A stretch of DNA of 64,000 nt, taken from contig JBAZBY010000001.1 in assembly GCA_041671225.1 (NCBI GenBank), forward strand, positions 366,940 to 430,939, written 5' to 3'. The notes beneath the pieces were generated by a model that saw nothing but the letters and a program-made list of their open reading frames with translations, searched no databases and was not told the DNA's origin. Below are positions 17,657 to 51,606 of this stretch, piece by piece. Positions within the stretch are counted from its first letter, which is position 1; each line of letters opens with the position of its first letter. Origin of the DNA: Patescibacteria group bacterium (GTDB lineage: Bacteria > Patescibacteriota > Patescibacteriia > JBAZBY01). The translations under genes were made by a program, and so were the position numbers.

Positions 17657-17850
17657 TCGGTCGATGATGTATAAGACTTTAAGGGGTCCCCGCAAACGGG
17701 GTGCGCAGGGCGAGTAGCTGCTCACGAGTGTAGCGAGTGAGCAGCGTGAAGCGAGCCCGAGCACACGTTTGTGGGGTAGAGCGAGGATTCGCGCGAAAGC
17801 TGAAGTGAGCGAGATTATGAGCTCATGGAAGCTGTAGCGCGAAACGACGC

Positions 17851-17925
17851 GCCGCGGTAGCTCAGTGGTAGAGCGCGGGCCTGAAGAGCCCGGCGTCGAC
17901 AGTTCGATTCTGTCCCGCGGCACCA
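17851..17925 (+). tRNA. tRNA-Phe (anticodon GAA)
   Basis: Acceptor GCCGCGG/CCGCGGC. Anticodon loop CTGAAGA and an encoded CCA end. Confidence 0.85.
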
Positions 17926-47595: not shown

Positions 47596-47682
47596 TGGTG
47601 CCGGGGGAGGGATTCGAACCCTCAAGCCCTTTCGGGCTGCAGATTTTAAGTCTGCTGCGTAAACCAGTTCCGCCACCCCGGC
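47596..47682 (-). tRNA. tRNA-Leu (anticodon TAA), long variable arm
   Basis: Reverse complement GCCGGGGTGGCGGAACTGG...CTTAAAA...AGCCCGAAAGGGCTTG...CCA, 87 nt. Confidence 0.85.
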
Positions 47683-47959
47683 ATATTTTAATAGCTTACT
47701 CTCCCGTCCCAGTTTTTGAGTGATTTGAATTCCACCCATGCCCGCCGTATCCGCCGTAGTCTCCTGACGAAGGCGGAGAAGGCGGGACCGCAGCTTACGC
47801 GCTCAGTATGCGTTCGAAACCGATAAAAATCAACTTTTCGGGTTGGTAGAATACGTTTTTTTAAAATACTGGACATTTTATCGTTTTTTGCTATACTCCC
47901 CCAGTCTTTAGCAGCTTTGGGTAAGGTCACTTTTTATCACCAATCATTAATATTTTCCT

Positions 47960-49999
47960 ATGTTTCTCGTGACCGTTTTCAGTCTCAGCGCGGCCGGGCT
48001 CATCATCGCCGGTTTTCTTGCGCGATATATCATCAACAGCGATCAGGGTAATGAAAAAATGCAGGAGATCGCGCAGGCCATCCGTCAGGGAGCCGGCGCG
48101 TTTTTGAAGCGCCAATACACGACCATTGCGATCATTTCCGCTATCGTTGCGGTACTCATCTTCGGGCTGTACGCATTCAGCGGACGGCTTGAACTTGGGT
48201 GGAAGACAGCCATTGCGTTCGTGCTCGGCGCCGCGTTTTCCGGTGCGTCCGGATACGTCGGCATGTATATTTCTGTGCGCGCCAATCTGCGCACCGCAGC
48301 AGCCGCGACCCGCAGCGTGAACGAAGCGCTCACCAAGGCGCTGCGCGGCGGTGCGGTTTCCGGCATCTTGGTCGTTGCGCTTTCCCTTTTGGGAGTCGCA
48401 GGATTGTTCGTATTGTACGGCGGCGTGCAGGATCCGGAATCAGTTCCGCTCACCTTGGTCGGTTTCGGCTTCGGCGCGTCATTGGTCGCGCTCTTTGCAC
48501 AGCTCGGTGGCGGTATCTATACCAAAGCAGCTGACGTGGGCGCGGACCTTGTGGGAAAGGTGGAAGCAGGCATTCCGGAAGACGACATCCGCAATCCGGC
48601 CGTCGTTGCAGATTTGGTCGGCGATAACGTCGGCGACTGCGCAGGCCGCGGTGCGGACCTCTTTGAAAGCACGGCCGCAGAGAACATCGGCGCAATGATC
48701 CTCGGAATCGTGTTGTTCCCGGTGTTCGGCATCGGCGGAATCATCTTCCCGCTCGTTGCCCGTTCGTTCGGATTGGTCGCGTCCATCATCGGCATCTTCT
48801 CCGTGAAGGTGCGCGGCGAAGAGGATCCGATGAAAGCATTGAATCGCGGTTTCTATGTGACGGCGCTCCTGGCATTCGTCGGATTCAGTGCCGCAAGCTA
48901 TATGATCTTTAAGGACCACTGGATCGCATTCTCGTTCGCCGGCTTGGTTGGCCTTGTCACAAGTTTGATCTTCTTACTCATCACGCAGTATTACACCGAA
49001 TATCGCTATCGTCCGGTCAAATCCATCGCACAGGCATCATCCACCGGCGGCGCGACCAACATCATCACAGGATTCGCTGTCGGCATGGAAAGCGTTGCTG
49101 GCCCGGTAATCGTCATCGTTGCTGCATTGCTCGGAGCATACTTCATCGGTGAAGGTACGGGACTGGAGGATGGCGGTCTGTATGGAACGGCTGTTGCCAC
49201 CATGGGTATGTTGGCCCCCGCGGCATATGTCCTTGCCATGGATACGTTCGGTCCCATCACGGACAACGCTGGCGGTATCGTGGAAATGTCCGGTTCTCCA
49301 GAAGATGTGCGCAAGCGCACAGACCGTCTTGATGCCGTTGGCAACACCACCAAGGCATTGACCAAGGGATATGCCGTCGGTTCCGCAGCACTCGCTGCAT
49401 TCCTGTTGTTCTCTGCATTCATGACAGACGCGCATCTGGAAAGCATTGACCTTGCGAAGCCCGTTGTCTTCGTTGGTGGGTTCCTCGGCGCCATGCTGGT
49501 CTTCTTGTTCTCATCGCTTGCCATCCGCGCTGTGGGCAAAGGCGCGTACTACATCATCAATGAAGTGCGCCGCCAGTTCAAAGCGGACCCCGGCATCATG
49601 GCAGGAACATCCAAACCAAGCTACACCCAGTGTGTGGACATTGCGACCAAAGGAGCACTGCGTGAAATGGTATGGCCTGGATTGGTGGCCATCATCGGAC
49701 CTACGGCCATCGGATATTTCCTTGGTGCAGAAGCTGTTGGCGCAACGCTCATGGTCGGTACTATCACCGGCGTGGTCATGGCACTTCTGTTGAATAACAG
49801 CGGCGGTGCATGGGACAACGCGAAGAAATATATTGAAATGGGAAATCTTGGCGGCAAGGGTTCCGAGGTTCATAAGGCTGCAGTCGTTGGAGACACGGTC
49901 GGCGACCCGTTCAAGGACACTGCCGGTCCGTCGCTCCACGTCTTTATCAAGTTGCTCGCAACATTGACGCTGGTGCTGGTTCCGCTCTTCCTGCGGTAA
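47960..49999 (+). CDS. hppA: Membrane-bound pyrophosphatase, K+-independent type (GNTTKA)
   Basis: 679 aa with about 16 TM helices. Motifs GGGIYTKAADVGADLVGKVE and DAVGNTTKALTKG. Confidence 0.9.
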   Translation: MFLVTVFSLSAAGLIIAGFLARYIINSDQGNEKMQEIAQAIRQGAGAFLKRQYTTIAIISAIVAVLIFGLYAFSGRLELGWKTAIAFVLGAAFSGASGYVGMYISVRANLRTAAAATRSVNEALTKALRGGAVSGILVVALSLLGVAGLFVLYGGVQDPESVPLTLVGFGFGASLVALFAQLGGGIYTKAADVGADLVGKVEAGIPEDDIRNPAVVADLVGDNVGDCAGRGADLFESTAAENIGAMILGIVLFPVFGIGGIIFPLVARSFGLVASIIGIFSVKVRGEEDPMKALNRGFYVTALLAFVGFSAASYMIFKDHWIAFSFAGLVGLVTSLIFLLITQYYTEYRYRPVKSIAQASSTGGATNIITGFAVGMESVAGPVIVIVAALLGAYFIGEGTGLEDGGLYGTAVATMGMLAPAAYVLAMDTFGPITDNAGGIVEMSGSPEDVRKRTDRLDAVGNTTKALTKGYAVGSAALAAFLLFSAFMTDAHLESIDLAKPVVFVGGFLGAMLVFLFSSLAIRAVGKGAYYIINEVRRQFKADPGIMAGTSKPSYTQCVDIATKGALREMVWPGLVAIIGPTAIGYFLGAEAVGATLMVGTITGVVMALLLNNSGGAWDNAKKYIEMGNLGGKGSEVHKAAVVGDTVGDPFKDTAGPSLHVFIKLLATLTLVLVPLFLR

Positions 50000-50019
50000 T
50001 AACCATTCCAGCGATAAGA

Positions 50020-50058
50020 AAACCGGCTGCATCGCAAAAAGCGAGCGGCCGGTTTTCG
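50020..50058. terminator. Terminator hairpin after hppA, followed by a perfect 40-nt palindrome (50059-50100)
   Basis: aaaaccggc...gccggtttt, then ccaaacgctctccatgaatgatttcatgaagagcgtttgg. Confidence 0.6.
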
Positions 50059-50098
50059 TATCCAAACGCTCTCCATGAATGATTTCATGAAGAGCGTT

Positions 50099-50270
50099 TG
50101 GAGCGGGTGATCCCGCTTTGCGGGACGGCCTCTTCTGGTCGCCGCCTGCATGAACTTCTATCATCCTACAATAAAAATCTATACTGGAGCGGGTGATCCC
50201 GCTTTGCGGGACGGCCTCTTCTGGTCGCCGCCTGCATGAACTTCTATCATCCTACAATAAAAATCTATAC
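50099..50270 (-). repeat. Two identical tandem 86-bp repeats, each ending in a tRNA-Gly(GCC) 3'-end mimic
   Basis: The units start at 50099 and 50185. Each carries a 12-nt copy of the tRNA 3' end including CCA (TCACCCGCTCCA) preceded by a T-arm-like hairpin tcccgcaaagcggga. Confidence 0.8.
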
Positions 50271-50345
50271 TGGAGCGGGTGACCGGGTTCGAACCGGCGA
50301 CCTCTTCCTTGGCAAGGAAGCGTTCTACCACTGAACTACACCCGC
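50271..50345 (-). tRNA. tRNA-Gly (anticodon GCC)
   Basis: Reverse complement GCGGGTGTAGTTCAGTGGTAGAACGCTTCCTTGCCAAGGAAG...TTCGAACCCGGTCACCCGCTCCA. Confidence 0.9.
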
Positions 50346-50397
50346 ATGTTGTTTTGAGGTCGGCGTTTGCGCCGTTTGTTTGCAAGACCTGACACTG

Positions 50398-50441
50398 CCC
50401 CCGCTGGGTGGGGGTCCGGCTTTGCCGGAAACTACACCCGC
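50398..50441 (-). other. tRNA-Gly(GCC) 5'-end fragment (first 12 nt of the tRNA) followed by two hairpins
   Basis: Reverse complement GCGGGTGTAGTT-TCCGGCAAAGCCGGA-CCCCCACCCAGCGGGGG, lying between tRNA-Cys and tRNA-Gly. Confidence 0.6.
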
Positions 50442-50448
50442 ATATTTT

Positions 50449-50522
<74 letters not shown>

Positions 50523-50602
50523 ATGTGAGCCGAGAAGCAAGAGCATTCCAAAACAGCAGTAGAGACAATAACAGGAAGTACTCGTCTGGTCAATATGATG
50601 TT

Positions 50603-50911
50603 TTAACGGCGAGAGGCCCTATAGAACAGCGCAGTAGAAATGATCCAGATCGGCCCCATGAGTAGGAGAACAAGGTATACTTGGTTAATCGTTTGGCTAC
50701 TCATAACTAACACTATCCAGAGAAACGTCGTTAGTAGTGTTCCCGTGATGATGGCGCGGAGTAGCGCATGACCTCGTGAGCGACCTGTGAGACGTGCCTT
50801 CGGCAGCCTACCAGACAGCTCGTGATCTGGATGCATCGTGGGGTTGTCCTCTATTTCATGATCCAGACGCATTTCTGGTAAATGCGGAGGTGGGGGTGCT
50901 TTGTGGGGCAT
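50603..50911 (-). CDS. Small membrane protein
   Basis: Pro/His-rich N-terminus and two C-terminal TM helices. Confidence 0.4.
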   Translation of the reverse strand: MPHKAPPPPHLPEMRLDHEIEDNPTMHPDHELSGRLPKARLTGRSRGHALLRAIITGTLLTTFLWIVLVMSSQTINQVYLVLLLMGPIWIISTALFYRASRR

Positions 50912-51606
50912 TATGTGATGGTAATTGATCGAATATCTTTTGGCGCATTGGTAAGCTCACGAACGCCGTGGCTTGTGACAAGATACATGTCCTCAAGACG
51001 GTATCCATCGCGACCTTTGAAGTAGAGTCCAGGTTCAATGGTTATCATATCATTTTCTGCCAGCAGATGCTCTTTTTTCTTTGGAGAAAGCCAGGGGGGC
51101 TGATGAATTCTTTTACCCACACCGTGGCCAAGCCCGTGACAAAAGATGCGGTTGTTGTATCCATTTTGTTTGAGATACGCGCGTGCAATCGTGTCTGTAG
51201 CACGTGCGGAAACACCGGCTCGCGCTTTTTTGGCCGCACGTTGCTGTGCGGTTCGGAGTAATGCATACATTCGTTTTTGCCGCGCAGATGGCGTGCCCAA
51301 AAAAAGCATGCGTGTCATATCTGCGCATATACCGCGCACTCTCACGCCAAAGTCACACACGATGCTGTGCCCTTTTTTGAGGACGGCATTGGTTGGGTGA
51401 TGGTGTGGTGCTGCGGCATTGCGTCCCGAGGCAATGATGAACCGGAATGCCCACGCGTCATATCCAAGAGCGCGAAAGTACGCACGCAACGCGTTCGCAA
51501 CGTCTTGTTCGGTCATTCCCGGTCTGACGTATTCGATCAAAAAACGGAAGCCATCACTTGTGACGCGCGCCGCTTCTTCTGCTGCTGCAATCTCAAGTTT
51601 ATTCAT
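50911..51606 (-). CDS. M24-family metallopeptidase (Xaa-Pro peptidase-like catalytic domain only)
   Basis: Pita-bread fold motifs HGLGHGVG, ENDMITIEPGLYF and DGYRLEDM. Confidence 0.75.
   Translation of the reverse strand: MNKLEIAAAEEAARVTSDGFRFLIEYVRPGMTEQDVANALRAYFRALGYDAWAFRFIIASGRNAAAPHHHPTNAVLKKGHSIVCDFGVRVRGICADMTRMLFLGTPSARQKRMYALLRTAQQRAAKKARAGVSARATDTIARAYLKQNGYNNRIFCHGLGHGVGKRIHQPPWLSPKKKEHLLAENDMITIEPGLYFKGRDGYRLEDMYLVTSHGVRELTNAPKDIRSITIT

Follow-up and report, generated by a model that had tools for sequence, protein, structure and literature searches.

Orphan tRNA-Gly termini and hairpin-bearing tandem repeats in a tRNA operon of a Patescibacteria group bacterium

Orphan copies of tRNA gene termini are usually read as the borders of prophages or genomic islands. 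The tRNA-Gly(GCC) gene in a 64,000-nucleotide (nt) stretch of DNA from a Patescibacteria group bacterium (GenBank assembly GCA_041671225.1, contig JBAZBY010000001.1, positions 366,940 to 430,939 of the forward strand; hereafter the window) is accompanied by a copy of its 5′ end upstream and by two copies of its 3′ end downstream, all without any integrase found. What, then, could have left them there? We conclude that the array is not a sign of repeated virus integration. We propose that it is the DNA-level scar of short insertion-plus-duplication events at both ends of tRNA-Gly, a reading to which we give about an even chance of being right. Structures of the same type were found at other tRNA genes of the window and of related contigs from the candidate phyla radiation (CPR).

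Results

Structure of the tRNA-Gly array

A preliminary description of the locus, made from the sequence alone, had reported two perfect 86-bp repeats directly 3′ of tRNA-Gly, each closing with a hairpin and the exact 12-nt 3′ terminus of the tRNA, CCA included. Tandem Repeats Finder (TRF; 100% matches, score 368) and a repeat search agree on the two copies (50099-50184 and 50185-50270), and the terminus TCACCCGCTCCA stands at 50099, 50185 and 50271. These three are its only occurrences in the window even when one mismatch is allowed, compared with 0.30 expected, and none of 100 shuffled sequences reached three. The same description had noted a 12-nt copy of the 5′ end followed by two hairpins; the copy is indeed present at 50430, but the hairpins after it number three. 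The 5′ 12-mer GCGGGTGTAGTT is found only there and in the tRNA at 50334, 96 nt apart (0.12 expected), and the copy matches the tRNA-Gly leader for 2 nt more (ATGCGGGTGTAGTT). The features of the array, in the direction of the tRNA genes, are as follows.

50449-50522, minus strand: tRNA-Cys(GCA), first gene of the operon (ARAGORN and Rfam, 70.8 bits)
50430-50443, minus strand: orphan tRNA-Gly 5′ end, AT followed by GCGGGTGTAGTT, positions 1-12 of the tRNA (repeat and count scans)
50403-50441, minus strand: predicted pseudo-minihelix, GCGGGTG pairing with CACCC(A)GC around the hairpin TCCGGCAAAGCCGGA at 50415-50429 (minimum free energy fold)
50346-50429, minus strand: 84-nt insert that separates tRNA-Gly from its orphan 5′ end and contains three GC hairpins (fold and sequence reading)
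50271-50345, minus strand: intact tRNA-Gly(GCC) with encoded CCA (ARAGORN and Rfam, 72.8 bits)
50185-50270, minus strand: 86-nt unit 1 (TRF and repeat search), consisting in order of an AU-rich hairpin (50270-50234), a spacer, the GC hairpin TCCCGCAAAGCGGGA (50211-50197) and the orphan 3′ end TCACCCGCTCCA (50196-50185)
50099-50184, minus strand: 86-nt unit 2, identical to unit 1, with its GC hairpin at 50111-50125 and its orphan 3′ end at 50099-50110

The resemblance of the unit to the tRNA extends farther than was first seen. Its final 37 nt align without gaps to tRNA positions ~40-76; they comprise GAAGAGGcCG with 9 of 10 matches (~3e-5 at a fixed register by our own calculation), a 6-7-bp hairpin, TCCCGC-AAA-GCGGGA, at the site of the T arm, and the exact 12-mer. 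Directly 3′ of the 5′ orphan stands TCCGGC-AAA-GCCGGA, which is the hairpin of the unit save for one compensatory base pair, and this hairpin motif has no further site in the window. Each unit opens with the AU-rich hairpin, which contains five G-U pairs and is favored on the tRNA-sense strand only (z = -3.1 versus 0.4 for the antisense strand). The direct repeats enclose just 74 nt. On the upstream side, the 3′ end of the 84-nt insert (CGGCG-CAAA-CGCCG plus ACCTCAAAACAACAT) imperfectly repeats the 3′ end of tRNA-Cys and the spacer behind it.

The inserts also contain reverse-complement 7-8-mers of the tRNA variable loop and the 5′ strand of the T stem, twice at tRNA-Gly and once at a tRNA-Phe described below, with 0.2-0.35 expected for each. 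They are CGACCTC (50356-50368), CGGCGACC (50223-50230 and 50137-50144) and AACTGTC (17976-17982). Their presence suggests that insert sequence was templated from the tRNA itself; they could reflect snap-back templating or a pairing of leader and trailer with the tRNA body. An Rfam cmscan of 49000-51500 at E ≤ 10 recovered the two tRNAs only, with no match to the RtT family, and a weak DnaX-like Rfam hit (E = 0.038) that sits on a terminator hairpin was dismissed as noise.

Relatives with a compact arrangement

The state of the locus before the array arose was examined in relatives that share the surrounding gene order. The gene hppA, which lies between the array and tRNA-Leu(TAA) in the window, was dropped as a synteny anchor because its homologs (up to 82% identical) are non-syntenic, and the M24 peptidase and Nth were used in its place. 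On the side of the array away from hppA, the block encoding the AMP-binding protein, trigger factor, IMPase, HD protein, flavokinase and M24 peptidase is syntenic in three relatives, with M24 peptidases 67-71% identical.

A comparison with related genomes had been suggested at the outset, and the locus proved compact in relative L089, where tRNA-Cys, 9 nt, tRNA-Gly(GCC), 114 nt and tRNA-Leu(TAA) follow one another without orphan fragments, units or hppA. In relative L090 only 5 nt separate tRNA-Cys from tRNA-Gly. The 84-nt insert is thus missing in both. The Cys-Gly spacer of the window measures 103 nt; its orphan 5′ end lies 7 nt past tRNA-Cys, at the place where the gene itself starts in the relatives, and the real gene follows 96 nt farther on. 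The orphan therefore marks the ancestral start of tRNA-Gly. The insertion boundaries on the 3′ side are less sharply defined: when the L089 Gly-Leu spacer was aligned with each of four stretches of the window (the unit, the DNA past the last unit, the Cys-Gly spacer and the intergenic DNA between hppA and Leu), no score rose above those of shuffled sequences. A metagenome scan for the Cys-Gly junction pattern gave no hits in a collection from which the lineage is absent, and two further relatives identified through Nth (L098 and L099) have no tRNA genes adjacent to it.

Copy number of the 86-bp unit

The iteration of the repeats had initially been taken to suggest repeated past insertions. This is not borne out, as the two units are 100% identical and their number differs between otherwise identical assemblies. 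Contig L001, a 147-kb MEGAHIT contig that encodes an identical hppA, matches the window at 100% identity across 10 kb except that it has one unit only, the missing copy being unit 1. The identity of the units, their bracketing by direct repeats and the differing copy number argue for unequal recombination or slippage rather than successive integrations, and they point to a recent tandem duplication.

It had been foreseen that the repeats might instead be an assembly artefact, with the second unit or even the entire array mis-assembled. The single unit of L001 and the known mishandling of tandem repeats by short-read assemblers would be in keeping with this. However, an independent k=31 contig (L002, Logan, SRR6484324) stops at window position 50128, which is 30 nt (k-1) into the repeat; by our reasoning on the k=31 graph, such a break implies at least two units in that sample. 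Both orphan termini are retained in the one-unit state, making the core finding independent of copy number, and four further assemblies, each independent, contain comparable structures. An artefactual duplication is therefore unlikely, and we consider mis-assembly as an account of the locus very improbable. Logan short-read contigs of the clade often break in or beside tRNA genes (at the ends of L090, L091 and L002 and at the starts of L096 and L097). Such breaks are consistent with repeated tRNA-derived sequence or with strain variation.

Recurrence at other tRNA genes

Within the window, tRNA-Phe (17851-17925) is followed, in the region 17926-18063, by a 97-nt insert that closes with a TCCGCC(16)GGCGGA hairpin (TCCGCCGTAGCCTCCGGGCGAAGGCGGA). 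An orphan Phe 3′ end, TGT plus TCCGCGGCACCA, comes next at 18022-18033 and matches 15 of 16 nt of the tRNA-Phe 3′ end when the three preceding bases are counted. Past this orphan come AAA, a terminator and nth, just as they follow the genuine tRNA-Phe terminus in L096 and L097, relatives in which the CCA of tRNA-Phe directly abuts terminator and nth. The orphan hence stands where the gene ended ancestrally, and the sequence that now separates it from the gene is new. Upstream, tRNA-Ile abuts tRNA-Phe in L096 (spacer of 0-1 nt), while the Ile-Phe spacer of the window is 194 nt long (17657-17850). It contains a CCCCG-CAAA-CGGGG hairpin at 17688 and an Ile-like 5′ 12-mer (GGGCGAGTAGCT, 11 of 12 nt) at 17708-17719, followed by a 9-bp hairpin.

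Three related contigs provide further cases. In L087, a CPR contig (1214-1484), tRNA-Ile is nested, with its own positions 1-22 copied exactly on the upstream side and positions 23-77 copied on the downstream side. The T arm of this outer Ile copy is swapped for TCCCGCC-ATTT-GGCGGGA, the inner tRNA-Ile sits within a perfect 20-bp inverted repeat in which the leader pairs with ACCA and the trailer, further imperfect inverted repeats are present, and tRNA-Phe follows 6 nt past the outer CCA. In L091 (3226-3380), TTC and the 5′ 12-mer of tRNA-Cys (GGCCTGGTAGCC) stand upstream of tRNA-Cys with the hairpin TCCGCC-ATA-GGCGGA; the order is the 12-mer, a 49-nt palindromic insert (TCCGCCATAGGCGGA...TCCGGCGGA), a copy of positions 13-33, a TCCCG...CGGGA hairpin and the real tRNA-Cys. 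In L094 (115-290, minus strand), a copy of tRNA-Phe positions 1-22 (GCCGCGGTAGCTCAGTGGTAGA, 21 of 22 nt) lies ~54 nt upstream of tRNA-Phe; it is nearer in sequence to the Phe genes of L087 and of the window than to its own neighbor, and the contig lacks the Ile nest of L087. L094 is the sole locus from a second metagenome scan, for which a neighbor of the L087 tRNAs was the query. The pattern was not seen at the tRNA genes of the other, mostly non-CPR loci, 25 tRNAs in 735 kb having been scanned in all. As their presence varies among relatives, these structures arise repeatedly and are not conserved.

The hairpins beside the orphans form a recognizable type. Ten TCCSSC hairpins were observed in the window where 1.08 are expected, and 4 of the 5 sites that they occupy abut orphan termini. 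The T-arm site holds such a hairpin in three 3′ copies, namely those of window Gly, window Phe and L087 Ile. The 28-nt hairpins at 17991 and 47750 are identical at 24 of 28 positions.

Flanking genes and transcriptional context

The array is set between the following features, the coordinates of which are again those of the window.

50565-50593, minus strand: promoter-like site of the tRNA operon, TTGACC, 17 nt, TG-TATTGT (consensus match only)
50013-50102, between the tRNA operon and hppA: a hairpin with 19-nt arms (50061-50102), which takes in the last TCCA, and a bidirectional terminator-like hairpin (50013-50062)
47960-49999, plus strand: hppA, encoding an H+/Na+-pyrophosphatase, convergent with the tRNA operon
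47596-47682, minus strand: tRNA-Leu(TAA), on the far side of hppA

From its position between a promoter-like site and a terminator-like hairpin we infer that the array is co-transcribed with the tRNAs, which makes a role in processing possible. Two open reading frames (ORFs) on the minus strand, of 129 amino acids (50179-50568) and 217 amino acids (49511-50164), which extend over the tRNA array and antisense to hppA, are almost certainly spurious.

The Gly-Leu gap is ~2.6 kb larger in the window than in L089, hppA included. Among the matches listed in a genome contig scan, hppA homologs were at most 66% identical; closer homologs (78-82%) were found in unrelated gene contexts. Since the hppA region is richer in GC than its flanks (0.56-0.58 versus 0.47-0.48), the closest homologs (at most 82%) occur in unrelated contexts and the gene sits in the Gly-Leu gap, hppA was probably acquired horizontally and inserted into the tRNA operon. 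Upstream of hppA there is a nested palindrome (47741-47790), CCCGCC ... TCCGCC(16)GGCGGA ... GGCGGG, the inner 28 nt of which resemble the hairpin at the Phe orphan. A 10-mer identical to the 5′ end of tRNA-Gly(TCC) at 47736-47745 is part of this palindrome and was judged a chance match (~0.1 expected per fragment).

Discussion

We propose that hairpin-rich non-coding DNA, 84 nt upstream and 74 nt downstream, was inserted at the termini of tRNA-Gly and that this copied the terminal 12-14 nt exactly and ~27-37 nt imperfectly. One intact tRNA-Gly would have been kept, while the original 5′ and 3′ termini stayed in place as orphans. The downstream insert and the duplicated 12-nt terminus would then make up the 86-bp unit, which, because direct repeats bracket it, could recently have been doubled through slippage during replication or through unequal recombination. 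Other tRNA genes of the lineage may have been shaped in this way too, and there a perfect GC hairpin of the TCCSSC-loop-GSSGGA type always stands beside the orphan terminus. The mechanism might be local and associated with repair or replication, such as templated or snap-back synthesis where a hairpin-prone tRNA gene has been broken, or it might involve a tiny non-autonomous palindromic element. Either appears to fit better than the integration of a phage or island.

Several observations weigh against this proposal. Exact acceptor-strand termini beside wholly replaced T arms, in several independent cases, could indicate selection on an RNA or the core site of a recombinase. Genomes whose flanking proteins are ~70% identical have the hairpin motif in common, as is more readily expected of a palindromic mobile element or of a site bound by a protein than of snap-back synthesis at random. 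In L087, complementary outer breakpoints (22|23) and the long inverted repeats on either side of the inner tRNA give the look of a single cassette insertion rather than of two independent end duplications. The one-copy state of L001 may be an assembler collapse. Moreover, the data comprise 64 kb of a genome of about 1 Mb and a few short contigs from relatives. Whereas the anatomy, the compact arrangement of the relatives, the difference in copy number and the recurrence are shown, the mutational mechanism is what we infer rather than observe, as is the absence of a function. It is because the exact termini, the motif shared across genomes and the breakpoints and inverted repeats of L087 may reflect a recombinase site or selection at the RNA level that our confidence stays at the even level stated above.

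The explanation favored in the preliminary description was that the duplicated termini are attachment (att) site scars. That they mark an insertion of DNA at a tRNA gene is supported; the involvement of an integrase is not. In the fullest form of this explanation, the 3′ end of tRNA-Gly received an element with a tyrosine or serine recombinase and a tRNA-Gly-like attP, and the 5′ end received a second one; both were then mostly deleted and left their attL and attR repeats, with hppA as possible cargo. The termini do form direct repeats, as the counts of TCACCCGCTCCA and GCGGGTGTAGTT demonstrate, the site is unoccupied in L089 and, for the 5′ side, in L090, the GC palindrome beside the repeat may be a recombinase core site, and hppA is GC-shifted, non-syntenic and exactly in the Gly-Leu gap. 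The tRNA-like stretch of the unit runs from near the anticodon loop to the 3′ end, as the classic att identity segment does. Against this, no Pfam hit to an integrase, recombinase or transposase was obtained for 10 neighboring and 30 further ORFs of the window, although ORFs without any hit remain unassigned; the initial remark that no integrase or island is adjacent holds to this extent. No viral contig with the unit or the hairpin turned up in three scans, for which the tRNA-like end of the unit, the AU-rich part of it and the 28-nt hairpin were used; most metagenomes and the plasmid collections lay outside this search. The repeats bracket 74 nt while hppA lies outside the last of them, with no repeat copy by tRNA-Leu. 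Orphan 5′ ends (Gly here; Cys, Ile and Phe elsewhere) are unexpected from integrases that target 3′ ends, and to our knowledge tRNA-targeting integrases normally leave no duplicate of the 5′ end. Identical units with a copy-number difference speak against independent integrations, and the distal copy should be a native 3′ half, yet its T arm is a hairpin in three cases (window Gly, window Phe and L087 Ile). We therefore regard an integrase origin as unlikely.

A functional RNA, in the form of trailer RNAs like the RtT repeats or of a processing scaffold, is another minority possibility. The orphan 5′ and 3′ acceptor strands would pair as a minihelix-like outer stem beside a stable hairpin and enclose the real tRNA, providing cut or stop sites for RNase P and 3′ exonucleases or yielding stable CCA-ending small RNAs. 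The layout is that of the Escherichia coli tyrT/tyrV RtT repeats, the units lie within the operon and ahead of the terminator, and the AU-rich hairpin is confined to the tRNA-sense strand. The orphan 5′ and outermost 3′ strands pair with a predicted probability of 0.96-1.0 in both the window and L087, the perfect 20-bp stem of L087 lengthens the acceptor stem, and termini are exact where T arms were swapped for structure-preserving hairpins. The outer pairing is nonetheless trivial and proves nothing, since the fragments copy acceptor strands. The structures are present in some relatives and missing in others (L089, L096 and L097 are compact and L094 is without the nested Ile), so that a function is not conserved; copy number varies inside one population, and no match to an Rfam family was obtained. 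One could also imagine decayed tandem copies of the whole tRNA-Gly that arose, like the tRNA pseudogene arrays of organelles, when tandem duplicates were lost at random; plastid trnF offers a precedent (PMC3786074). A 75-nt tRNA with an 11-nt spacer would give the period of 86 nt, the partial copies share one orientation, copy number varies between one and two, perhaps by assembler collapse, and positions 13-17 and the anticodon loop have faint counterparts in the upstream pseudo-copy. Homology of the unit to a whole tRNA was nevertheless rejected, as only its last 37 nt align; its first 49 nt have no significant similarity to tRNA positions 1-38, with 759 of 2000 shuffles scoring as well. Identity is all-or-none, 12 exact nt lying beside unrelated sequence, rather than uniformly decayed, the T arms are replaced and not mutated, and the orphans are at ancestral positions with new DNA between them. 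Such decay is in our judgment improbable. A split or permuted tRNA was rejected as well, because an intact tRNA-Gly is present and the hairpins are self-complementary rather than complementary to each other; the outer copy, which is without a T loop, was called as a tRNA by neither ARAGORN nor Rfam.

A bolder reading, which we hold to be decidedly doubtful, is that some CPR/Patescibacteria possess "pseudo-tRNA shells", a class not described before: orphan acceptor strands, with the T arm turned into a TCCSSC-type hairpin, around a functional tRNA. These would be the footprint of a novel type of tiny, non-autonomous, tRNA-targeting palindromic element that regenerates its target, or would be a selected processing scaffold. 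If the latter were true, an outer minihelix and a long stem could serve the maturation of polycistronic tRNAs with a reduced set of RNases. Of these results, the repeated appearance of the pattern in tRNA operons of the CPR most deserves follow-up. If it extends genome-wide, it would amount to a lineage-specific remodelling of otherwise extremely compact tRNA operons, and to a novel small signature of mobility or repair or else an architecture for pre-tRNA processing that has gone unrecognised. In practical terms, orphan-terminus loci break short-read assemblies, and those who search for islands or curate CPR metagenome-assembled genomes should expect such loci.

Among known systems, att borders share with the array the direct repeats of tRNA termini, an empty site in a relative and a foreign-looking gene, hppA, beside the tRNA. 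The window differs in that no integrase or element body was found, in the mere 74 nt bracketed, in its 5′ orphans, in its identical tandem units and in the remodelled distal T arm. Arrays of tRNA pseudogenes, such as plastid trnF and mitochondrial remnants, are alike in having partial same-orientation copies beside a functional tRNA, variable copy number and a probable origin in slippage or illegitimate recombination. The array of the window, unlike these, is on a bacterial chromosome and has exact termini beside unrelated hairpin DNA, a nested layout and a recurrent hairpin at the T arm. Repetitive extragenic palindromes and their mosaics (REP/BIME), which are mobilised by REP-associated tyrosine transposases (RAYT), are likewise short GC-rich intergenic palindromes. 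The window-type hairpins start 2 nt past the tRNA GTAG (positions 7-10) in three cases, which recalls the GTAG that precedes REP stems. They differ, however, in occupying only 5 sites in 64 kb, of which 4 abut orphan tRNA termini, and the L087 breakpoints do not fit. No RAYT gene or Y1_Tnp hit was found among the scanned ORFs of the window, and we treat the likeness to REP/RAYT as a lead only. Fragments of tRNA genes derived from integrated elements are a documented class (PMC9897764). Neither these nor the plastid pseudogene arrays explain the nested layout or the exchange of a T arm for a hairpin.

The RtT repeats of the E. coli rttR/tpr locus come nearest. With the same covariance-model library, cmscan found four RtT (RF00391) copies in E. 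coli K-12 at 133-138 bits, of which three form a tandem array with a 178-nt period, and each closes with the exact 19-nt 3′ end of tRNA-Tyr, CCA included (AATCCTTCCCCCACCACCA). As in the window, these are same-strand tandem repeats directly 3′ of a tRNA that end in its exact 3′ terminus and lie within its transcription unit. The period and the shared terminus are shorter here (86 versus 178 nt and 12 versus 19 nt), no similarity in sequence or to the covariance model was found in 49000-51500, and the window array, unlike RtT, has a GC hairpin in place of the T arm as well as an upstream 5′ orphan. rttR is an expressed RNA according to PMC3318445, which cites Bosl and Kersten 1991, and the array of the window gives no evidence of a tpr-like ORF. 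The RtT array is thus the closest known analogue of the tRNA-Gly array by layout and not by family membership, and the latter represents a second, independent case of the long-unexplained tyrT/RtT arrangement.

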